This document shows positions 7,333-50,462 of a stretch of 57,488 bases of DNA, in pieces (position 1 is the stretch's first letter; each line of letters starts with the position of its first letter). The notes below the pieces were generated by a model that saw only the letters and a program-made list of their open reading frames with translations, searched no databases and was not told the origin of the DNA. Origin of the DNA: a virus (lineage: Duplodnaviria > Heunggongvirae > Uroviricota > Caudoviricetes); the IMG/VR virus record IMGVR_UViG_3300044640_001538; one strand, 5' to 3'. The translations under genes were made by a program, and so were the position numbers.

Positions 7333-7364
7333 TTTGGTAAAGTCAATTAAATAAACTAATTTTG
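7333..7364 (+). promoter_or_regulatory. Bacteroidota sigma70 promoter
   Basis: TTTG-N20-TAATTTTG, matching the established -33 TTTG / -7 TAnnTTTG consensus. Confidence 0.8.
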
Positions 7365-36487: not shown

Positions 36488-36519
36488 TTTGGATAATTAA
36501 AATAAATGTCGTATATTTG
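36488..36519 (+). promoter_or_regulatory. Bacteroidota sigma70 promoter
   Basis: TTTG-GATAATTAAAATAAATGTCG-TATATTTG. Confidence 0.9.
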
Positions 36520-36536
36520 CGCTCAATCATATAATA

Positions 36537-36746
36537 ATGGTTGGGCGTTTATATTATAAAAATATGCAACATATAACACAGTTATCCTTAACAGATGCAG
36601 AAATAATTGCTTTAAAAGACGCAATAAAAACATATAAAGAGTTTGTAAAAGATAAAATAGAAGACAGAATTGAAGCTCCATATTGGGCAAGATTGGAAGC
36701 AATAAAAAATTTAGAAAGAAAATTAAAACAAGAACATGAGCTGTAA
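36537..36746 (+). CDS. Small helical protein of unknown function (start may be the ATG at 36564)
   Basis: Follows a promoter; overlaps the start of the giant gene by 11 nt. Confidence 0.55.
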   Translation: MVGRLYYKNMQHITQLSLTDAEIIALKDAIKTYKEFVKDKIEDRIEAPYWARLEAIKNLERKLKQEHEL

Positions 36747-39700
36747 ACTGCAAAAGAACGAAAAAAACGGTAAAATAAATAAAGTGTTAAATCAAGCTGG
36801 AAAACCTTCAAAACTTTTCCAACAGATATTTAATACACCAACATTAACCTTAAACCAAGCAATAGATGCTTATAAGAATATCTATTCTGAAAAACTAAAA
36901 GACACTGTTAAGTTTTCTATTGGGCAAAAAGGAATATCAATCCAAGAAGCCGTAAAAAGAAACAACGGAAATCCTTTAAATTTAGCACCAAATGGAAAAC
37001 CCTCTATTTTATACCAATCATATAAAGATTTAGGATATTCTGATAGCGAAGCAGAAAGATTAACAGCACAAACTTTTAGTGATGAGTTTCAAAATTGGTT
37101 TGGTGATTGGATAAATGCAGCTAATTCATTTTTTGATGGCGACATATTGGATAGAAAAGAAGCTATAAAAACTTTCAATTCTAGTTATGTTGTTGATAGC
37201 AATATGCAACCTGCTGTAATGTACCATGGCACACCATCATCTGATATAACAGAATTTGATAGAAATAAAAAAGTAAGAAAAAGCAGTGGTTTAAGGGAAG
37301 TTGCAAACTATTTTACCTCAAATATAAAATTAGCAGAATTATATAAAAAAGCAGAAGTAGATGAGGAATATAGAAATAGTGTAAAAAAAGAAATAACTAA
37401 ACTAAAAGAGTTACAATATAACGTTCGTAACAATAGAGACTATGATAGTATAGAAAATAAAATAAAACTGTCACAAGATAAATTATCTGGAACTATATAC
37501 TCTACATTTTTAAATGTTAAAGAACCGTTTTTAGAAAATGGAAGAGGGTTAGACGAAAGAGCATGGAACAATTTTAGACTACCAATAGGATACAAAACGG
37601 CAAGTAATAAAGCAGATATCTTAGACGCACTTAGTGGTAAAAATGATGCAGCAAGGTTAGATACTAACTATGATGGAGCTATTGTAAGTAATATTGCAGA
37701 TATGGCATCTGGAAAATCCTTATTCACAACAGAAGAATCATCACTTGATGAAGTTAGAGAAGATGTAAAACCTTATATAGGTACAGTTGTTGCGGTATGG
37801 GAGCCAAACCAAATAAAATCAGCAACAGAAAACATAGGAACATTCGGTAGTGAAAGTAATGATATTAGATACCAAATACTTGGAGAAAAGGGTGCACAAA
37901 ATTTAGACCAAATAGAAGAAGCAACTTTTAGAATGGATAACTTACTTGTCGCCAAAGAAATGGAACAAGTAGGCAAAACACCTTTACAAATCCGTTTATC
38001 AACAGGTTGGGAGAAAAACTCAATGGATTTAAAGTGGAGATATGAAATATTAGATGGAAACATAAAACCACTTACAAACTTAAAACCAAACTTAAATATA
38101 AAAGGAATAGGGTATGTATTTGTAACAAATGTTGAAGAAATATTCAACAACGAAGAATTATTTAAAGCATACCCTAACTTAAAACAAACAGAAGTAGTCT
38201 TAATGATGTCCGATAACGAAGCATTCAGGGATTATAAAATGTTTTTTTCAAATGATAAAATATATATAAATTTAAATTACTATGGAAATACAACTGCCTT
38301 GGGCATCGACACCCGAAATGACTTCATTCATGAGCTCCAACATTTTTCTCAACAAATTGAGGGATTTGAAAAAGGAGGTAGCCCTGATGGGTACAGAACC
38401 AGAGCTATTGAGTATCTTAATAAAGTACGAGAGTCAGGCTATACCGAAGCTTCAGAAACAGTGGGCTTTAGAGAAATTGCAAAAGAGTTTGACAACTTTA
38501 TAAAAAACTCGGAATACATTCTTTTCAAGGATATGAATGTAATTACTTCAAATGATGAAAGTATTGATGCTGTATCTTTTTTATATGGTATAGATAGGTA
38601 TGAAAGATTGGCAGGAGAAGTGGAGGCGACGAATGTGGAAAATAGAGTAAACATGTCCGCCGAAGAAAGATTAAACACACTTCTTTCCGAGACACAATCT
38701 ATTCCATTTGAGGACCAATTTATTTCTCAATTTAAAAATGACACACAGGCAATCTTAAATTCGCCGCAAAAAATTGAAAAAGAAGTTTTAGACAGACTAA
38801 AACAAAACGGATTAGCTAACAATGTTTACCAATTAACTACAGCTGAACTTAATAATAAGTTAGAAGAACTTGGAGTAGGAAACACAAAACAAACAGTTAA
38901 CGGTTTTGTACATACAGCAACAGGAGATATTTATTTAAACTCTGATTTAGCTGACAATTCGACACTTATCCACGAATACTCGCACATCTTTTTAGACACA
39001 ATAGAAAAAACTCGTCCAGAACTATATAAAAGAGGAATGGATTTAGTAGAAGAAGAATTAAATAAAGAAGATTCTGATATTAAATCAATAATTGATTTTG
39101 TTACTACAAACCAGCCGTCCTTAAAAGGCGACGCACTAAAAGCTGAAATTTTAGCAGAATTAACAGGTCGCAGAGGTAGTGAACTTTTAGAAAGTTTAAA
39201 AGCTAAAAAAAGTGGTATTTTTGATTGGCTGATTGATATTTGGAATTCCGTAAAAGACATGTTGAATCTTACTTCAGTAACTCCAGAGCAGTTATCTCAA
39301 ATGACTTTGGGCGAATATGCTGATGCTATTACTGTGGATTTAACCATGGGTAAAAAACTATTTGAAGATTCTGTAAGAGGACAAGAAACTAAATTCCAAA
39401 TTATCGGCGAAAAAGGAGCTTCAAGAATAGAAGAATATAACAACCTTTTAAACCAAGCAAAAGAATTAGAAAAACAAGGTGCAACACCAGCAGAAATAGA
39501 AAAACAAACACTATGGTATAAATTTAAAGGACAATGGAGAACCTTACCTAAAGAAATTTTACAAAGCTTTAAAGTTGTATCCAATACAAGAGATAAAATA
39601 TTAACATTAAAAGAGGTAATAGGTGATGACAATGTACTATTTAAATTTTACCCTGAAATTGACAAAACTAAAGTTGTGTTTGTTAGGGAAGGTGTTCAAG

Positions 39701-42700
39701 ATTTACAAACACCAGAAGATTTCGAGGACTATAGTGGAGCTTACGATGAAGGAAGTGATACTATCTTCATCAATACGATGTATGAAGGCAATGAAGTCGG
39801 AGAAAAAGAAGAAAAATACACTCTCGGGCATGAGATTCAACACAGAATTCAAGAGGTAGAAGGATTTCCTAAAGGAGGAGATTATACAAGTATTTTAGAT
39901 GAAGCGTTAACTATACTAAATATATCTGAAGATTTAGGACCAGAAGATACATATAACAGGATATTAAAAGCAGATAAAACAAATCTTACTGACAATGAAA
40001 AATTAATAGTAGACGCAAGTTTAAATACAGTTTTAGCCATAGTTAATGATGACGAGAATCTTCTTAAAAATCAGTATAAACATTTACTAGGAGAAATAGA
40101 TTCAAAAGTAGTAGAAGCAGCATTAAAAGTAAAAGATAATTTTAACATAATTCCTAAAAGCTATAAGGAAATGCTTGGTTATTACGCCAATATAGGAGGT
40201 GTAAATTTAAGTGAAGTATTTTTATTAAGAAACGGAAATAAAAGATTTTCAAAAACAACAGTAGAAGAACCACAAGCAAAATTCAATGGTTATAATACAT
40301 ATTCTGAAGCTCTTAAAAACACAACATCAAATGATACTATCAAAATAACAATAGAAGATGAAGTTGTAGCAGAAGTTAGCGCAGATACAAGTAATAATAC
40401 TATTAATGGAAGCTTAAATGATTTAGTTAAACAAACAATTTTAAAAGGAGAGAGATTTCTTAATCCTAATGGAGATATTGTACATGTAACTGAAGGTAAT
40501 TCGGCGGCAAAAAAGTTTATAAACGCAACAATAGCAGAAAATTTATTAGGAAGAAACAACACAATTATTGATGATAATAGTAACATTATTTTAAAGGAGA
40601 AACAAGAATCTGTTTTAAAATTAAGCTTTGACGAAATTAATAAAAAATATAAAGATGTTGAAACTTCAAGCGCCGTAATTGCAGGTAAATTATATGCTGA
40701 AAATATGACACCATTTGGAGATAGTAGAGTAATTGACAGCGCTCAAGAAATAACTCCAGAGAATGTCCTACAAGAAAATTTATTAAACTTACTTTCTCAA
40801 TTAGGGATTAAAACAGTTAGTTTAGATAGATATAAAGCATCGTATGAAAATAGAAATGGAGTACCAGTAACAGCAGTTGCTTTAGCTGATATTGCTAATA
40901 AAGTTATTGCTTTTTCTTCTGGGCAAGTTACTCAAGATACTTTAACAGAGGAGGTTTCTCACTTTATTATCGAAGCTTTAGACCAAGAGGCTATTCAACC
41001 ACTGTTAGACAACATAAACAAAACAGAGGAGTGGGCAGAACATGCACAACACTATTTTGAATTATATGGTGACGAGGCTATTGTTAGAAAAGAAGTTTTA
41101 GGTAAAGTATTGTCAAATGCTATTCAAAAAGGATTTAGACAAGAGCAAACTACTATGGTAGGGAATTCTATTATTTCTAAACTTAGAGCTTTCTTTGAGC
41201 AGTTTTTAGATTCTATTTATGCTATGATTAAACCACAACATACGGTGGATTTACAGAGATTTACTAATGAGGTTTACAGAAATCTTATGGCTAATCAATT
41301 AATAGATAAATTGAATAAAGAACAGCTTGAAGGTAACAAACTTGTAATGTATCAATCATCTGCAACTATTAATAATGAAACAGATGTTTTGGCGGAAAAA
41401 GTTAAAAAAGCTTTAGAATATTTAGAAAACCAAGACAGAAAATTAGACTCTATTTCAAAAACAGAAATAGAAGATATAAAACAATTACAAGATTTAGATG
41501 CAAGTTTACAAATAGCAAAAATATCTAAAAGACAAGTAGATTATTTAAGAAAAAGAAACAAAGCAAAATTACTTTCATCTGAAGAATATGCAGTTTATAC
41601 TTCTACAACAACTTTCTTATTTAATGCTTTAACAGCATTAAGAGGTGCTGTAAGTAACAAACAAGCAGAACAAGCGCTTTCTGAAACTATTAATGATATC
41701 ACTTTATTAAGACAAGAGGTGAGCATCAACCAAGAAGAAATCTTTAACGATTTAATTGACAGAATTGTAGTTTCTCCAGAGCAAAAAGCAGCTGTTTTAG
41801 AGAGTTTTAGAACGTTAGAAAAAGATACAAACTGGTTTTTCCAACAAGCTGGTGGTATTATTCATGCAAGTAACCCTGCTTTAAATATTTTATCGGCGGT
41901 TATTAGCGACATGAATGTAAAAGCTAAATTAAACTTCAACGATAGAAAAGTAAGTTTCTTAAATGTTGCAGATAAATTAGGTTTTGATGTAAATCAATTA
42001 CCAGATGTTTTAAAGAAATTTAAAAGAGGTAATTATATATTTAATGCTTACGATTTTGATAAAGCGGAGGACGATTTAAATGAAGAAAAAGCAAGACTTT
42101 TAAATGAGATGTTCACCGAGGAAGAGAAAAAAGAAATCGGCGCAATAACAAAAGAAACGGTAAAAGAAAAAGAGAATGATATAATAGCTAACTTTAAAGA
42201 TTTAGAGCGTGTAAAAAATTATAAATATCAAGCAAATCAATACAGACTTAGAAATCAAAACATTCCAAACTTAAAACAGTCTGAAATAGATGCTAAAGAT
42301 AAGTTTATAGAAGAGAACAATATTTCTTCAACAGCTTTATTATTAGATGCAGAATTCTCTAAAAAGAGAAGCAACATAACAAGACAAGCTAAAAAAGAAG
42401 GTGGTTTTTCTCAAGCTTTAAAAGCTTTGATGGAAGAGTTAAACAGAGATAGACTGTTTGCTAAAAATCCATTTAATAACGACGGAGATTTAAGACCAGG
42501 ACTGTCTTTTGATGAAGATGGAAAGTTACAAATTGATGTAAATTCGGCAACAAAAGAATCTATATTAGTTTATGAATTAACAAAATTAGATGAGTATAAA
42601 GCAAAAAGTTTTAAAGAAAATACAGGTCAAGCTCCAACACCAACTTACTTCTATAGTATTTTGGAATCAATGGATAGAGATGAAAGAAGAGAGTTTTTAG

Positions 42701-45438
42701 AATTAAATGCCAATATAAGTTTCAATAATAATTTCTGGGACCAATTTGATAGTAATACTAACCAAGTGGAAGATGAAGAGCTTGCAAAACAAATTGCTTT
42801 AGTTTCTAAAAAAAGAAGCAACATCTTAAAAGCTTACAAAGTATTTAATAATCCTTCTGAGGTGAATTACACCGCAATGAATGATATTACTAAAGACGAG
42901 GTTAGAAGATTATCAGAACAATTAGAAACATTATACAAAGAAGCTAGTAGTAAATCTGGAAAAGAAACAGAAGATAAGTTTTTTGAATCTATTGTTAATG
43001 ATGCGTATAAAAAAGAAATAAGAGATTATTACTCTTTAAGGGTGGACGAAACTCCAACAGTAGACCAAGTAGTAGAATTTGCAAGAAATCACACTACTTT
43101 AGATAATAAATATAAATTAGATTGGGCAAGGGGGGTTTTCAAAGATTTTGAAAATGGTAGAATAAAACAATTACCTAAATCTTTACAAGGTTATAACAAC
43201 GCCGCAGAATTTGCAGAGTCAAAACTTTTACCGTACTTCAAAAAAATACAACCAAAAGGATTTGATTATGAAGCAGAGTTAAACAACTTTTTAGACAACC
43301 CAACTCAAGGATTAAATTCTCAATATTTATCTATAACTCCAAGTTATATATTTTTGGAGCAAGGAGAAAATGACAGAGTTAATCCAGAGTACATGAAAAG
43401 AATAGAAAATGGAGAACCTTTATTAAATGATAAATATGCTAACGAAGAGTATTTAAAGTATTTTGGAATGTCTTCAATTGATGCGCAACCAACTAAAAAC
43501 TTAAAAGAGTACGAACTTTTAAAAGAATTAGTTGTTTTTCAAGAAGAAACTATTTTGTCAGCGGGAATGGAAAATAAACACAATAAGTATTTATTACCAC
43601 AAAAAGAGGCAAGAGGTTTAAGAAAAATAATGGGTGCTGATGTAAAAGGTTATTTAAGAGATTTAACTAGAAATAGAGAAGACGATGCAATTTACGGGCA
43701 AAAAACAGATGAAACAAAATCTGAAAGACAAGGTACATATAACGAACTAATAGTTCCAAGACACGGTTTTTATAATATAGAAAATACAACAGACGAATTA
43801 CTTTACAGCTATATGTGGATGGCGCAACAATCTGAATTAACAAGACAGAGAATTGACGCACTTGCAGAAGTTGAAAGTGTTAGAGGAGCTTTATTAAACA
43901 AACAATATGGAGATAAGCACGGAGAATCTACAAGAACATATAAAATGTTTGATGATTTTGTAAGAGCAAATATCTATGGGCAGTCAGAAACTTTCCACAT
44001 GGATACAACTCTATTTGGTTTGAAAAAAGACAAAGTAAATGTGGCTACATCTATTAAATCTTTTCAAAGTTTTATCAGACTTTCTAACTTAGGGTTTAAC
44101 ATTCTTACACCACTTACGTCTTTACTTCAAGGTAGTGTCAATTATTTCGGGGAAAAAGTTGTAGGGGGAAGAATAGATAAAGATGCAGAAAGATTATCAA
44201 GAGGATTAATGTCTTCAATGCTTACAGAATCAGCTAATGAAACATTCAGTTTAGTTGGAAAAGGAAGACTGTCTATGTTAAATGAATTTATGGGGCAAGG
44301 GAATGCACAAGAAAGGTTTGAAAATTCAAACTATAGCGGTGTAGTCAGAGGTTTACAAAAATCAGCTTACTTAACACACTCTATAGCAGATGCGCCTTTA
44401 GCAACAAAAGTGTTACTAACAGTTTTACATGATTACAGAGTTGTTGGAGATAAAATTATGAACTTTAAGCAGTTTGCAAATACTTCAGACAAATCGGTAA
44501 AAGAACTAAGAAAAGAGTGGGTTACATACGAAAAAGATGTAATATTTAACTATTTAGAAGTTGTAAAAGACGGCAAATACGGAAAATACCAATTAAAAGA
44601 AATACCTGGAGTAGATAGAGCCTATGCAGAAAAAGCTTTACAACAAATTAGAAATGCTGTAACTTTAGCAAAACAAGAGGTTGATTCGGCTATTCCTAGT
44701 GTGGATAGGTCAAACATACAACGCCATGCGTTATTGAGCTTCGCCGCCTTACACAAAAATTGGTTGGCAACCTCTATGACAAGAAGGTTTAAAAGTAGAC
44801 ATCAAAACATGTATTCTGGATTAGCAGAAGAAGGAAGTTACACTGGAGTAGGTAATTTCTTAAAAGATGTTATTTCAGACATGAGAGCCAATGGAGGATT
44901 AAAAAACCTAAGACAGTCTTTAGTTAAAACTTGGGCAGAAGCAAAAAATGACAGAGTGAGAATGGAGTCTTTAAAAAGAGCTATGTTTGACGTTGCTATC
45001 GTAAACGCTTTAGGATTAATTGCAATACTTCTTAAAAATGCCGCAGATGATGACGATGAAAAAGATAACGCAATGTTACAATTTAGTTCTTACATGGGAT
45101 ATCGTTTAGCTTCAGAGGTAACTTCACAGTCGACTGGTTTTCCTAATGAGGCTTATAAATTCTTAGAGTCACCAACAACAGGTTTATCACAGATTCAAAA
45201 TATGTTGGATATTACAGATTTAGCATCCTCAGATTTAGTAAAAACAGGTAAATATCGTGGATATAGTACTAGAGCGGCATGGATGTTCAAAACTTTGCCT
45301 GGTATTAAAGAAGTGTTTAAACTGACAAACATGGATAAAACAAGACAGACTTATGAACTGTTTAATAGAAGTATTCAAAATCCATTCTTTGTAGCAAGTT
45401 ATTCTATACTAGAAAAGGATAAAGAAGAGGAAGAATAG
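36736..45438 (+). CDS. Large polyvalent ejection protein (2900 aa): ART-like domain, 2x LPD23+zincin, further zincin domains, helical C-terminus
   Basis: MYHGT...NYFT...FLNVKEP...YDG...WEPNQIKSATENIGTF (ART-PolyVal pattern); TGWE...KWRYEI (LPD23); HELQH, HEYSH, HEIQH and degenerate EEVSH; C-terminal hydrophobic helix. Confidence 0.8.
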   Translation: MSCKLQKNEKNGKINKVLNQAGKPSKLFQQIFNTPTLTLNQAIDAYKNIYSEKLKDTVKFSIGQKGISIQEAVKRNNGNPLNLAPNGKPSILYQSYKDLGYSDSEAERLTAQTFSDEFQNWFGDWINAANSFFDGDILDRKEAIKTFNSSYVVDSNMQPAVMYHGTPSSDITEFDRNKKVRKSSGLREVANYFTSNIKLAELYKKAEVDEEYRNSVKKEITKLKELQYNVRNNRDYDSIENKIKLSQDKLSGTIYSTFLNVKEPFLENGRGLDERAWNNFRLPIGYKTASNKADILDALSGKNDAARLDTNYDGAIVSNIADMASGKSLFTTEESSLDEVREDVKPYIGTVVAVWEPNQIKSATENIGTFGSESNDIRYQILGEKGAQNLDQIEEATFRMDNLLVAKEMEQVGKTPLQIRLSTGWEKNSMDLKWRYEILDGNIKPLTNLKPNLNIKGIGYVFVTNVEEIFNNEELFKAYPNLKQTEVVLMMSDNEAFRDYKMFFSNDKIYINLNYYGNTTALGIDTRNDFIHELQHFSQQIEGFEKGGSPDGYRTRAIEYLNKVRESGYTEASETVGFREIAKEFDNFIKNSEYILFKDMNVITSNDESIDAVSFLYGIDRYERLAGEVEATNVENRVNMSAEERLNTLLSETQSIPFEDQFISQFKNDTQAILNSPQKIEKEVLDRLKQNGLANNVYQLTTAELNNKLEELGVGNTKQTVNGFVHTATGDIYLNSDLADNSTLIHEYSHIFLDTIEKTRPELYKRGMDLVEEELNKEDSDIKSIIDFVTTNQPSLKGDALKAEILAELTGRRGSELLESLKAKKSGIFDWLIDIWNSVKDMLNLTSVTPEQLSQMTLGEYADAITVDLTMGKKLFEDSVRGQETKFQIIGEKGASRIEEYNNLLNQAKELEKQGATPAEIEKQTLWYKFKGQWRTLPKEILQSFKVVSNTRDKILTLKEVIGDDNVLFKFYPEIDKTKVVFVREGVQDLQTPEDFEDYSGAYDEGSDTIFINTMYEGNEVGEKEEKYTLGHEIQHRIQEVEGFPKGGDYTSILDEALTILNISEDLGPEDTYNRILKADKTNLTDNEKLIVDASLNTVLAIVNDDENLLKNQYKHLLGEIDSKVVEAALKVKDNFNIIPKSYKEMLGYYANIGGVNLSEVFLLRNGNKRFSKTTVEEPQAKFNGYNTYSEALKNTTSNDTIKITIEDEVVAEVSADTSNNTINGSLNDLVKQTILKGERFLNPNGDIVHVTEGNSAAKKFINATIAENLLGRNNTIIDDNSNIILKEKQESVLKLSFDEINKKYKDVETSSAVIAGKLYAENMTPFGDSRVIDSAQEITPENVLQENLLNLLSQLGIKTVSLDRYKASYENRNGVPVTAVALADIANKVIAFSSGQVTQDTLTEEVSHFIIEALDQEAIQPLLDNINKTEEWAEHAQHYFELYGDEAIVRKEVLGKVLSNAIQKGFRQEQTTMVGNSIISKLRAFFEQFLDSIYAMIKPQHTVDLQRFTNEVYRNLMANQLIDKLNKEQLEGNKLVMYQSSATINNETDVLAEKVKKALEYLENQDRKLDSISKTEIEDIKQLQDLDASLQIAKISKRQVDYLRKRNKAKLLSSEEYAVYTSTTTFLFNALTALRGAVSNKQAEQALSETINDITLLRQEVSINQEEIFNDLIDRIVVSPEQKAAVLESFRTLEKDTNWFFQQAGGIIHASNPALNILSAVISDMNVKAKLNFNDRKVSFLNVADKLGFDVNQLPDVLKKFKRGNYIFNAYDFDKAEDDLNEEKARLLNEMFTEEEKKEIGAITKETVKEKENDIIANFKDLERVKNYKYQANQYRLRNQNIPNLKQSEIDAKDKFIEENNISSTALLLDAEFSKKRSNITRQAKKEGGFSQALKALMEELNRDRLFAKNPFNNDGDLRPGLSFDEDGKLQIDVNSATKESILVYELTKLDEYKAKSFKENTGQAPTPTYFYSILESMDRDERREFLELNANISFNNNFWDQFDSNTNQVEDEELAKQIALVSKKRSNILKAYKVFNNPSEVNYTAMNDITKDEVRRLSEQLETLYKEASSKSGKETEDKFFESIVNDAYKKEIRDYYSLRVDETPTVDQVVEFARNHTTLDNKYKLDWARGVFKDFENGRIKQLPKSLQGYNNAAEFAESKLLPYFKKIQPKGFDYEAELNNFLDNPTQGLNSQYLSITPSYIFLEQGENDRVNPEYMKRIENGEPLLNDKYANEEYLKYFGMSSIDAQPTKNLKEYELLKELVVFQEETILSAGMENKHNKYLLPQKEARGLRKIMGADVKGYLRDLTRNREDDAIYGQKTDETKSERQGTYNELIVPRHGFYNIENTTDELLYSYMWMAQQSELTRQRIDALAEVESVRGALLNKQYGDKHGESTRTYKMFDDFVRANIYGQSETFHMDTTLFGLKKDKVNVATSIKSFQSFIRLSNLGFNILTPLTSLLQGSVNYFGEKVVGGRIDKDAERLSRGLMSSMLTESANETFSLVGKGRLSMLNEFMGQGNAQERFENSNYSGVVRGLQKSAYLTHSIADAPLATKVLLTVLHDYRVVGDKIMNFKQFANTSDKSVKELRKEWVTYEKDVIFNYLEVVKDGKYGKYQLKEIPGVDRAYAEKALQQIRNAVTLAKQEVDSAIPSVDRSNIQRHALLSFAALHKNWLATSMTRRFKSRHQNMYSGLAEEGSYTGVGNFLKDVISDMRANGGLKNLRQSLVKTWAEAKNDRVRMESLKRAMFDVAIVNALGLIAILLKNAADDDDEKDNAMLQFSSYMGYRLASEVTSQSTGFPNEAYKFLESPTTGLSQIQNMLDITDLASSDLVKTGKYRGYSTRAAWMFKTLPGIKEVFKLTNMDKTRQTYELFNRSIQNPFFVASYSILEKDKEEEE

Positions 45439-45565: not shown

Positions 45566-46342
45566 ATGACTCTTAATTTAATATTTATGAGATTCAAAAA
45601 ATCAACAAACGAATTATTTACAGATAACGGCGTATTTATAAAAAAGATAAGTTGTCCATTAGAAGATGCAAGTCTTTATTTAGAAGTTAATGAAGTAACT
45701 AAATGTACACTTTGTAATAACTGCCACAAAGAAGTAGTAAATATAAACAGACTAACAGATAAAGAGGTTTTAAATATCTTTGAAAAAGACCCAGAAACAT
45801 GCGTATCATTTAGTATATCTAAAGAAGTAAATGAAGGCAGAGATGATTTGCTTATTGTTGGGTATAAAAACTATGGAAAAAACAACACTGAAGATTTAAT
45901 AAATATAAGTACTGCAAGAAATGTAGATGAAATAAATAAAGCAGTAGAGCAAGGGTATAATATTATATTAAAAATGACAGACAAAATAAATGATTGGATG
46001 CTTATAACTGGTTATAGCTATTCTCTAATTAAAACAGAATCAGGTAGATACATAGAATATACAGACCCAAGAACAAAATATTGGCTTGGTGAAAAGTTCG
46101 AGACGATAATATCACATAAAAAATACAACGACACAAGTAGTGAAATTCATTATGCCGCTTACATAGTGCCAAAAGATTTAAAGAAAGGAGATAGAGTATT
46201 TTTAGAAGATATCATAGAAGATTTTCCTTACCATATTCACCATGGCTCGTCAAAATTAAAATCATGGACAGCTACTTTTAACGGAGAAGATTTCGATATA
46301 GATTACACTATATTTAAAGACTCAATAATGTGCATAGGATAA
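45566..46342 (+). CDS. Hypothetical two-domain protein with Cys cluster (moron-like)
   Basis: FIKKISCP...CTLCNNC...TCVSF possible Zn site; second domain AAYIVPKDLKKGDRVFLEDIIED; has its own promoter. Confidence 0.6.
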   Translation: MTLNLIFMRFKKSTNELFTDNGVFIKKISCPLEDASLYLEVNEVTKCTLCNNCHKEVVNINRLTDKEVLNIFEKDPETCVSFSISKEVNEGRDDLLIVGYKNYGKNNTEDLINISTARNVDEINKAVEQGYNIILKMTDKINDWMLITGYSYSLIKTESGRYIEYTDPRTKYWLGEKFETIISHKKYNDTSSEIHYAAYIVPKDLKKGDRVFLEDIIEDFPYHIHHGSSKLKSWTATFNGEDFDIDYTIFKDSIMCIG

Positions 46343-46692
46343 TGAAACTAGCGGTCATCGGGAGTAGAAATTTCACAGACTATAATTTCTTCAAAGAAAA
46401 GTTAGAGTATTTAACACAAAACATAGAAGAAGATATTGTATATGTAAGTGGCGGCGCTATTGGAACAGATAGTTTATGTAAAAGGTATTGTCAGGAAAAC
46501 AACTACGAGCTAATAGAATTCTTACCAGATTATAAACAATATGGTAAAGCGGCAACACACATTAGAAATAGTCAAATAGTTGAGTTTTCAGACGCTTTAA
46601 TAGCATTTTGGGATAATGTGTCAAAAGGGACAAAATCAACGCTGGAGAAGGCTAAAAAGAAGGGAATAATAATTAAAATAGTAGAAATATGA
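46330..46692 (+). CDS. SLOG superfamily protein (YspA/cpYpsA-related, DUF2493-like)
   Basis: AVIGSRNF, VSGGAIGTD, RNSQIV, IAFWDNVSKGT; start is probably the ATG at 46342. Confidence 0.85.
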   Translation: MHRIMKLAVIGSRNFTDYNFFKEKLEYLTQNIEEDIVYVSGGAIGTDSLCKRYCQENNYELIEFLPDYKQYGKAATHIRNSQIVEFSDALIAFWDNVSKGTKSTLEKAKKKGIIIKIVEI

Positions 46693-47027
46693 TAAAATAT
46701 AAAAACTTCTTATTTATAGAAGATGTAGGATACAGCGGAGTACAAGCAGATTTATCTGACGGTTTTTTAAAAGAAGGTATGGATGGTAATAGAAAAATAA
46801 AACTACCACATAAAAATTACACACTTTTAGGAATTGTAGACGAGTGTATAAACGCACCTTACGCAGAAGAATTTTTAGCGGGCATAGTAGAAAAAGACGA
46901 GTTTGGAGGATATTTTGATTATGAGTTAGAAGAGCACAATTATGATTCAGCTTCAGACAGTTTTCAAACTTTAGCAAGAGTATTAAGATTAAAACCAACA
47001 GATTATATTTTGAGAGATGATGAGTAA
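46689..47027 (+). CDS. Hypothetical protein
   Basis: ORF track; overlaps neighbours in operon style. Confidence 0.55.
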   Translation: MIKYKNFLFIEDVGYSGVQADLSDGFLKEGMDGNRKIKLPHKNYTLLGIVDECINAPYAEEFLAGIVEKDEFGGYFDYELEEHNYDSASDSFQTLARVLRLKPTDYILRDDE

Positions 47028-47262
47028 AGATTATTGGAAAGAATTAAATGACGAATATTTAAATTTACCGAAAGAAAAAACAGACGAAAATATTTTAAAA
47101 TGGTCTGAAGAATGGGGTAAAAAGAGTCAAAAATTATTAGACAAATACGGAAATATTTCTTGGTTAATACTAGAAGCAGCAAATATGTTAAGAAACGAAG
47201 ATATTTCAGAAGGAAAATTTAGAGAATTAGTAAGGTTTTGTTTAGATGACATACTCCCATAG
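47017..47262 (+). CDS. Hypothetical protein whose 3' end is supplied by the TnpB element right end
   Basis: The last codons (DILP*) lie inside the element's terminal hairpin, 47246-47280. Confidence 0.55.
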   Translation: MMSKDYWKELNDEYLNLPKEKTDENILKWSEEWGKKSQKLLDKYGNISWLILEAANMLRNEDISEGKFRELVRFCLDDILP

Positions 47263-47345
47263 CTAAAGCAAATGGGATTCTTAAAAACGCTTGAACTACT
47301 GTCCTACGTTAACTTTAAAGGAAGATGCCCCTTCCATGTATCTTT
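47226..47345 (-). ncRNA. TnpB reRNA/omegaRNA scaffold plus guide (predicted guide starts CTAAACAAAACCTTAC...)
   Basis: Scaffold overlaps the tnpB 3' end (GGGGCATCTTCC, AACGT..GCGTT stems) and ends in the CCCAT..TTTAG..ATGGG hairpin and GTCAT. The flanking DNA serves as guide by established TnpB biology. The 5' end is approximate. Confidence 0.7.
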
Positions 47346-48471
47346 TTAACAAAACTAAACAAGCATCGTCATCTGCATTTGCTGTGTGTTTACATTTAAC
47401 ACAACTAAAAATAGATTGAGTAGGTCTGTTCTCTTTACAAGTGTGTCCACATTTTGAACATTCTTGAGAAGAGTAAGCTGGGTTTATTTTTATTACTTCA
47501 GTTTTTGTTTCCAAAAGTTCAAAAAATTTACCCCAACTGCAATCTAAAATATGTTTAGCAAGATTTGTGTTTTTAACCATTTTGGTTATATTTAAATCTT
47601 CGACTATTATTTTAGAATAATCATTTGCAAATTTTGTAGAAACCTTATGTAAAAAATCTAATCTTGTGTCATAAACTTTTTTGTGTAATTTAGCTACAAC
47701 TTTAGCTTGACGTTTGAAATTTTTAGACTTCTTATCTTTTCTACTTAATTTTCTCTGCTCCACTCTTAGCTTCTTTTGATAATTGAATAAGTGTTTTGGA
47801 TTATCTATAATTTCTCCATCTGATGATGTAAGAAATCTTGAAACTCCCATATCTAAACTCACAATACTATCAGATTGGTTCTCTCTAATAATATTTTCTG
47901 TTTCTACAACTATACTTAAATAAAGACCGTCTACTTTTTTAGTTAGTTTTGCTTGTTTTATTTGCCCATTAAATTCATATTTTTTATTAAATACTTTTAC
48001 TTCTCCAAAACCAGGTAATTTAAAACCTTTTTCGGTTATTTTTACATTTTGTTTAAAAACTAAAGTTTGATATTTATCTTTTTTAGCCCATTTTGGTTTA
48101 CCAATATTGTAAAGTTTATGGTAATTTATATCAGTATTATTTTTTAAACATTTGTTGATATAATCCTGTTTTAGTTTTGAAATTTTACCTTCTTTGAAAT
48201 CTTTGAAGAATTTTTTATAAGCTAATTCTAACCTTTCTAAAGATGCTTGAAGTGTTTGACTGTGTACTTTTTTAAGCCAATCAAAATCTTTTTTAGCTTC
48301 TGTTAGTTGTTTAGATAGGTCGTTGTAGTTTATACTTACTCCTTTCTTAAAAGACTCTTCTCTACATTCTTTTGCTAAATTGTACACATATCTACATACA
48401 GAAATCTGCTCGTCATATTTTGACAAGTATTTTTCATTATTATACAGTTTATATGTGTACGTTTTAATCAT
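47296..48471 (-). CDS. tnpB: RNA-guided endonuclease TnpB
   Basis: N-terminal YTYKLY...CRYVYN; RuvC-I SLDMG, RuvC-II IVEDL, Zn ribbon CSKC..CVKC, RuvC-III NADDDA; catalytic D/E/D intact. Confidence 0.95.
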   Translation of the reverse strand: MIKTYTYKLYNNEKYLSKYDEQISVCRYVYNLAKECREESFKKGVSINYNDLSKQLTEAKKDFDWLKKVHSQTLQASLERLELAYKKFFKDFKEGKISKLKQDYINKCLKNNTDINYHKLYNIGKPKWAKKDKYQTLVFKQNVKITEKGFKLPGFGEVKVFNKKYEFNGQIKQAKLTKKVDGLYLSIVVETENIIRENQSDSIVSLDMGVSRFLTSSDGEIIDNPKHLFNYQKKLRVEQRKLSRKDKKSKNFKRQAKVVAKLHKKVYDTRLDFLHKVSTKFANDYSKIIVEDLNITKMVKNTNLAKHILDCSWGKFFELLETKTEVIKINPAYSSQECSKCGHTCKENRPTQSIFSCVKCKHTANADDDACLVLLKRYMEGASSFKVNVGQ

Positions 48472-48474
48472 CTT

Positions 48475-48609
48475 TTATTTTTCTAAAGCGGCAAGGCGTA
48501 AATAAGTGGATAACTTTAATCCTATTTTGTTAGCTTTTTCTATTAATATTTTTTCTTCTTCTAAAGAAACCCTTACTGGTATTAATTTTTCTCTTTTTTG
48601 ATTTATCAT
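48475..48609 (-). CDS. Ribbon-helix-helix (CopG/MobC-like) regulator, 44 aa, not in the ORF track
   Basis: Hand translation MINQKREKLIPVRVSLEEEKILIEKANKIGLKLSTYLRLAALEK; stop is 3 nt before the tnpB ATG. Confidence 0.8.
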   Translation of the reverse strand: MINQKREKLIPVRVSLEEEKILIEKANKIGLKLSTYLRLAALEK

Positions 48610-48628
48610 TAGTTATATTTTTATTGTA

Positions 48629-48660
48629 CAAAAGTAATACATTTATTTTAATTATCCAAA
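48629..48660 (-). promoter_or_regulatory. Bacteroidota sigma70 promoter for RHH-tnpB
   Basis: TTTG-GATAATTAAAATAAATGTAT-TACTTTTG. Confidence 0.8.
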
Positions 48661-48695
48661 TTTATTACAACCACTGTACCAATTTATCCCCGTGC

Positions 48696-48735
48696 AAAAA
48701 CCCAAGTTGAAATTAATCTTCTTGGGTTTCTTTTT
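48696..48735. terminator. Bidirectional terminator at the convergence of + and - transcription
   Basis: AAAAACCCAAG...CTTGGGTTTCTTTTT, with A-run and T-run flanks. Confidence 0.75.
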
Positions 48736-49732: not shown

Positions 49733-50311
49733 TTAAATAACAATGTGTTTCCAAGTAGAACCGTAACATATTTTTTTCAAAGCTGATAAAGATAATAATT
49801 CTTTGTAGTCTCCATGTATAGAAGAACAAGATTCACTATTTGAATACCTGGTCCTTATATCTACAACATCCTTTTCTTTTAGAGATGTTCTAGGATTATT
49901 TTCTCCAACATTATTTACTACTCTACCAAGTACTTCAAAAGCATGTTTTCCATTATAGCTTTGAGTACACCATTCTAAATTTTCAACCCTGTTATCATCT
50001 CTAATTCCATTTTTATGGTTTATAATAGGGAAGTTTTTAGGATTAGGTATAAAAGTTAAAGCTATTAATCTATGAACAATAGCGGTATATCTTTTATTTT
50101 CTACACTTAATGAAAATTGTTCATATCCATTAGAATAATAACCTAATCTAAGTACTTTTTCTTTTAGAGATTTAATACTCCCTCTCTTGTCTTTAAATTT
50201 TCGATTTAAAACTTTGATTCTTCCAAGAGTAGATGCCTCACAATACTCTTCGTAACCAAACAAAGGTTTCCATACCTCTTTTTCCAAGTCTTCTTTTGTA
50301 AATTCTCGCAT
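49733..50311 (-). CDS. NUMOD4-HNH homing endonuclease
   Basis: EVWKPLFGYEEYCEASTLGRIK (NUMOD4); VHRLIALTFIPNP...INHKNGIRDDNRVENLEWCT..YN (HNH). Confidence 0.92.
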   Translation of the reverse strand: MREFTKEDLEKEVWKPLFGYEEYCEASTLGRIKVLNRKFKDKRGSIKSLKEKVLRLGYYSNGYEQFSLSVENKRYTAIVHRLIALTFIPNPKNFPIINHKNGIRDDNRVENLEWCTQSYNGKHAFEVLGRVVNNVGENNPRTSLKEKDVVDIRTRYSNSESCSSIHGDYKELLSLSALKKICYGSTWKHIVI

Positions 50312-50430: not shown

Positions 50431-50462
50431 CAAATATACGAAAATTAATTCAGATTACCAAA
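50431..50462 (-). promoter_or_regulatory. Bacteroidota sigma70 promoter
   Basis: TTTG-N20-TATATTTG. Confidence 0.9.

Follow-up and report, generated by a model that had tools for sequence, protein, structure and literature searches.

The window, a 57,488-nt stretch of DNA from a Caudoviricetes virus, carries on its minus strand a two-gene cassette that is almost certainly a non-autonomous IS605-family (IS1341-type) arc-tnpB element. A half-deleted left end and a mismatched right end make it very probable that this copy is immobile. The combination of such an element, these lesions and spread by homing is probably the best explanation overall; homing as the route of spread of the filled allele is, taken by itself, about evenly poised. 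More tentatively, a transposon that has lost its working ends may persist in the phage population as a self-repressed, RNA-guided, free-standing homing endonuclease.

The larger gene (47296-48471, minus strand) encodes a 391-aa TnpB. In a profile search it scored 229 bits against NF040570 (cut-off 100), and PF01385 and PF07282 were matched above their cut-offs. The RuvC residues D207, E291 and D367 were invariant in 26 TnpB homologues, in agreement with the sequence-only reading of this DNA, which had called the RuvC intact; the zinc-finger cysteines C338, C341, C357 and C360 were likewise invariant in 26 homologues. An insert of ca. 21-25 aa near residues 98-122 is common to part of the family. 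Codon comparisons of tnpB with two relatives yielded 13 synonymous vs. 4 non-synonymous changes (L007) and 93 vs. 64 (L008), a synonymous excess that fits purifying selection. RNA-guided, TAM-dependent cleavage by the protein is predicted, with TTAT as the predicted TAM. Neither a tnpA nor a second copy of the element was found in the window, which covers roughly half of a large phage genome (contigs with these genes reach 102-121 kb); the cassette had already been described as lacking tnpA.

Directly upstream lies a gene for a 44-aa Arc-like ribbon-helix-helix (RHH) protein (48475-48609, minus strand), the end of which is 3 nt from the tnpB ATG. The protein matched PF21983 (NikA-like) with 43.5 bits against a cut-off of 27, and its structure model featured an extended N-terminus and two helices (pLDDT 85.6). 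A PDB search returned NikA alone (E = 0.44), and the RelB antitoxin profile was matched with 18 bits, under its cut-off of 50. Coordinates, profile and model thus confirmed the original description of an RHH gene of this size and spacing, and only its label as unannotated was wrong: gene callers do call the gene, with PF21983.

The pair has its own promoter, as had been proposed. It was located at 48629-48660 (minus strand) and is of the Bacteroidota type (consensus: PMC6847099), with a -33 TTTG at 48660-48657, then 20 nt, and then the -7 box TACTTTTG at 48636-48629; this layout is kept in 11 relatives. A phage promoter at 36488 has the same first 22 nt. The operator postulated earlier was not upheld: the TGTA..TACA inverted repeat, whose coordinates are 48625-48641, recurs in 2 of 11 relatives, and inverted repeats of 4 bp were at chance level (10 observed vs. 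9.8 in shuffles). The pseudo-palindrome GTATTAC at 48640-48634, which overlaps the -7 box, is a candidate operator. GTA repeats with 11-nt phasing that vary with RHH subtype were also considered; much of this sequence recurs in promoters of the phage itself, and therefore no operator could be assigned. Moon et al. (10.64898/2026.09.24.754181) found that Arc binds and represses the element promoter, with elements of arc and tnpB only among those tested, and that some Arc homologues showed no binding. Those experiments and the conservation of the pair favor the earlier idea of a self-regulated cassette, minus its proposed operator.

The reRNA scaffold overlaps the 3' end of tnpB. Free folding of this region was not significant (z -1.23) and an Rfam search left the reRNA unmatched; support for the scaffold core (47246-47335, minus strand) was taken from comparative pair counts in place of free folding. 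Two stems (47335-47320 and 47310-47286, both minus strand) showed compensatory changes, with 92.6% of cells paired (28-45% in slid controls) and 11 of 17 pairs changed on both sides. A terminal 4-bp pseudoknot is possible in 28 of 28 sequences; in this copy, the GGCA loop of stem 1 (47329-47326) would pair with UGUC at 47251-47248. The right-end hairpin (47276-47256, minus strand) is intact. End comparison placed the right guide, GAAT, at 47280-47277 and the terminal TCAT at 47249-47246 (both minus strand). In relatives, guide and terminus pair as GAAT-TCAA (n = 18) or GAAC-TCAG (n = 13), with L013 and L030 as other exceptions to this rule. The last base of the right end is accordingly mismatched to its guide here, and the right end, once called canonical, is so in scaffold and hairpin and departs from its relatives in this terminal tetranucleotide.

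The element lies in the 3' end of an 81-aa phage gene (47017-47262, plus strand), which was recognized as the target by comparing filled and empty members of its cluster. The native C-terminus, CLDKE..., is replaced by the element-derived CLDDILP followed by a stop; 10 of 10 search hits end in CLDKE, and the cluster includes filled and empty forms. The change to TCAT keeps an Asp that is present in every homologue of the target gene, and it is conceivable, as a speculation, that selection on this gene was responsible. The predicted guide (47226-47245, minus strand) is flanking phage DNA. Six empty-allele contigs (three haplotypes) read CTTTAT and then match the guide at 24 of 24 positions, which places the insertion after TTAT, as would be predicted from the closest relatives. 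Insertion 3' of a tetranucleotide without target duplication was confirmed on the right side, the side open to this check because the left junction is lost. A scan for the empty-site pattern recovered the L005 contig alone and three chance matches, and an unspecific scan for the junction pattern gave no true filled allele among the matches fetched. No precise-excision joint was seen in the contigs, which drop rare variants, and there was no second TTAT-plus-guide match in the window.

The left junction is formed by a bidirectional terminator hairpin (48695-48733; arms 48698-48706 and 48721-48729) that is not part of the element. It is native phage DNA, present in the empty alleles L005, L206, L209 and L210, and its sequence includes the stop and the final codons of a 51-aa gene absent from the filled allele. 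Alignment to the intact left ends of L012, L022, L016 and L004 identified 48681-48694 (minus strand) as the 3' arm of an IS605 left-end hairpin, fused after the T-tract of the terminator; the 5' arm, the left guide and the TAM are all gone. The sequence-only reading had seen no left-end hairpin, which is true of an intact one and misses this remnant arm. It had also placed the cassette where plus- and minus-strand genes converge, beside the terminator: a true head-on meeting exists, but at the right end, where the element covers the final 17 nt of the target gene, and the terminator is upstream of the cassette. Between insertion point and terminator, the filled allele lacks small genes that occupy 1114 or 2065 nt in empty alleles, a deletion size that is measured against sister phages and not a direct ancestor. 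The terminator resembles the 5' part of relatives' left ends (the junction scored best or near-best among ca. 170-230 sequence windows), and we infer that the outer left end was lost by a deletion through recombination between the left-end loop and this look-alike stretch. IS608 needs pairing of guide and cleavage site as well as the hairpins (PMC3201880); by these rules, the copy should be poorly mobilisable.

Directly upstream of tnpB, a small gene (38-48 aa) is present at ca. 20 other sites, whose flanks are unrelated, so the survey of RHH-tnpB pairs and insertion sites suggested earlier found the pair conserved. Nine of these upstream genes are 60-90% identical to the present RHH protein, the other types being called RHH by alignment alone. 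A clade of 18 rows in the TnpB tree (support 100/100) comprised 14 with RHH directly upstream, 3 solo and 1 led by tnpA (L025). The slot upstream of tnpB is thus taken by tnpA in L025, and its occupant has changed several times; at least four further dissimilar small RHH-like genes occupy it in L002, L024, L029, L032 and L033. Close relatives L001, L008 and L020 have lost the RHH gene and kept tnpB; these three, with L009, L010 and L021, are close tnpB relatives without RHH that lie directly behind a phage gene and have an intact right end.

The left hairpin is intact in many relatives. Inspection by eye showed TTAT 13-16 nt before left guides that end in A (L011, L012, L016, L022 and L047) and TTAC upstream of those that end in G (L002, L025, L026, L027 and L029), with a partial fit in L019 and L062 and no fit in L004. 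L004 and L013 are broken family members. One related phage combines an RHH-tnpB copy with a complete tnpA-tnpB element; such a complete element, at L015:896-1863 in a related phage, is close to a homologue of the 51-aa gene next to the terminator in the empty alleles. Close relatives came almost solely from viral or phage-like contigs, and in a pattern-limited scan of 185,579 species genomes a single hit reached 45% identity. The pairing at ca. 20 other sites, often with intact ends, argues for a mobile family and not for the possibly domesticated module of the sequence-only reading, as do the co-varying ends, the tnpA-led member and the empty alleles in sister phages. Copies with a tnpA in trans and signatures of transposition, both at odds with domestication, were largely found. 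What survives of that reading is that this copy looks unable to transpose; its family is mobile.

A search of sequencing runs showed that the stretch occurs in lake-water metagenomes, and no RNA dataset was listed among the runs that contain it. Virion-type genes lie on the plus strand and small genes on the minus strand, and the GC skew changes sign near 47-48 kb. The host is inferred to be a member of the Bacteroidota from repeated TTTG/TAnnTTTG promoters and from one phage gene whose best hits are Cellulophaga, Olleya and Tenacibaculum phages. Further well-formed promoters matching the consensus were located at 7333, 11416, 20191, 20736, 25225, 36488 and 45474 (plus strand) and at 50462 and 49686 (minus strand). 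A sigma-70 promoter scan of the window did not rise above chance (12 vs. 11.3), as the host relies on a different consensus. No cultured relative was found for a 1044-aa gene. Among the virion-side genes is a BspA-type leucine-rich-repeat protein (PF13306; 6144-7298, plus strand). A 2900-aa polyvalent protein (36736-45438, plus strand) has ART-PolyVal (154-370) and LPD23, and the length of its homologues is very variable among sister phages. The gene after it is swapped among these phages: it encodes 258 aa in the window (45566-46342), an unrelated-looking 251 aa in L007 (4801-5556) and 159 aa in L209, and is absent from L005/L206 (L203 was also compared). A YspA/DprA-like SLOG-family gene (46342-46692, plus strand) keeps its position in all sister phages. 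One kb from the cassette is a free-standing NUMOD4-HNH endonuclease gene (49733-50311, minus strand); L006 matches the window on either side of this gene and not across it.

Both junctions were found again in a second type of phage, L007. Within the element, the window and L007 had 1 difference in 953 nt and none in 296 nt, bar one 176-nt block in tnpB (48199-48374) with 17 differences, which means that recombination occurred inside the element as well. This block points to recombination with another family member, and related partial elements are present in the same lake samples. In the flank there were 23 differences in 215 nt, the first of them 29 nt from the element end; between the L007 flank and that of an empty allele there were fewer, 11. 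The upstream gene of L007 is identical to that of the window at 33 of 84 positions, vs. 79 of 84 for an empty-allele phage. Exchange points lie beside the element, within 28 nt on the right and ca. 60 nt past the terminator tail on the left. ISDra2 TnpB cuts 15-21 bp from the TAM (PMC8612924), and a cut at such a distance would fall inside the tract where the exchange must lie. These comparisons cover two filled alleles as DNA. A third filled flank is P0135, whose contig stops at the stop of the gene; a further contig, judged by gene lengths only, may combine upstream genes of the window type with downstream genes of the L007 type.

The contrast between a near-identical element and divergent flanks fits homing. 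Ordinary recombination could also produce it, since these phages are highly mosaic and no allele departs from the others in the first 28 nt of flank. The element, with the same lesions, may accordingly be a passive passenger, carried from one phage background to another by such recombination and with a TnpB that is still to decay. Empty alleles that offer a perfect target have persisted and broken family members exist, both of which accord with such a passenger, as does the genome mosaicism around the site. We consider it less likely, though a serious rival, given exchange points immediately beside the element on both sides and the synonymous excess between the two filled copies.

The preferred reading, an element with these lesions that spreads by homing, comprises the following steps. 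As is well supported, TnpA acting in trans would have inserted the element 3' of TTAT at the end of the gene at 47017. Recombination of the left-end loop with the look-alike terminator would then have eliminated the outer part of the left end together with 1.1-2.1 kb of small genes; the junctions are seen directly, and the mechanism is putative. The right end was altered too, in its terminal base, and excision by TnpA should no longer occur. Since both ends look disabled, any spread would have to be TnpA-independent. To judge from tested relatives, an RHH dimer would bind the promoter and damp transcription of rhh-tnpB-reRNA. TnpB with its reRNA would cut sister phages that infect the same cell where TTAT is followed by the guide match. 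In repair from the filled genome, with the conserved target and the conserved terminator as the two flanking regions of homology, the cassette would be copied and the recipient's intervening genes deleted. That sister phages are converted in this way at co-infection, with the terminator as one homology arm and a 1-2 kb accessory block erased, is put forward as a possibility to which we give somewhat less than even weight.

Domestication by the phage, whether as a regulated weapon for the exclusion of sister phages or as a nuclease re-aimed at another target, appears improbable. Both ends are damaged while RHH, RuvC and scaffold are intact, the promoter is almost identical to the phage's own at 36488, and a third flank haplotype is filled (P0135), all as a retained module would have it. 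The guide, however, is the flank of the insertion site, with no further match after TTAT in the window; most sister alleles are empty, the family is mobile, and the filled alleles are ca. 98% identical, so the insertion is young. Quite improbable as well is a transposition-competent non-autonomous IS in which the terminator hairpin substitutes for the left end and TCAT is tolerated: the terminator does resemble a left end and tnpA is present in related phages, but no TTAT stands at the expected distance upstream of the fused hairpin and the junction is seen at this one site. An RHH-TnpB toxin-antitoxin pair in which RHH binds and inhibits TnpB, as proposed for an archaeal clade (PMC10691335), is very hard to credit despite the operon-like layout and the weak RelB hit, since that clade is non-mobile with a rearranged RuvC and this family is mobile with a canonical D-E-D, the 44-aa protein is a bare RHH without a neutralising tail, and L001, L008 and L020 dispense with the RHH gene.

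The element is one more member of a described kind, arc-tnpB, known since 2023 and studied experimentally in 2026. Zedaveinyte et al. (10.1101/2023.11.20.567912) described Arc-like RHH genes in IS605 elements. The present element shares with these a stand-alone RHH gene of at most 50 aa inside an IS605-type element next to tnpB. The examples featured in the publications have tnpA/arc divergent from tnpB and come from Clostridia, whereas the present arc-tnpB pair, from a phage, is arranged in tandem on a single strand and preceded by a Bacteroidota promoter; in a comparison by description, the best profile of this RHH protein is NikA-like. The IS1341 group (tnpB only) has no tnpA, a hairpin right end, a tetranucleotide target without duplication and a right-end reRNA (PMC13565253); the present element differs in its RHH gene, truncated left end and mismatched right cleavage site. 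The archaeal RHH/MazE-TnpB systems (PMC10691335) also have a small RHH gene directly upstream of tnpB, but are non-mobile and have a rearranged RuvC, in contrast to the canonical D367 and many insertion sites seen here.

Homing or gene drive by TnpB has been reported (PMC8612924; PMC11870625), with drive in the absence of TnpA demonstrated in plasmids; TnpB homing between co-infecting phages was described as theoretical (PMC13565253), and intronless homing by free-standing phage endonucleases is known from T4 SegB/SegF (reviewed in PMC13565253). In the present case, as in these systems, a nuclease would be directed at a conserved piece of coding sequence in alleles without the element, and spread would not need TnpA. 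It differs in that homing was demonstrated for sister chromatids and plasmids, and in that conversion here would delete 1-2 kb of recipient genes.

The site offers a natural case in which filled and empty alleles are both known and TAM and guide can be read directly, and the clade supplies compact TnpBs with predictable TTAT or TTAC TAMs. If homing is indeed the route, it would demonstrate in phages, for which it was only proposed, what plasmids have shown, and it would represent a drive able to delete accessory genes.
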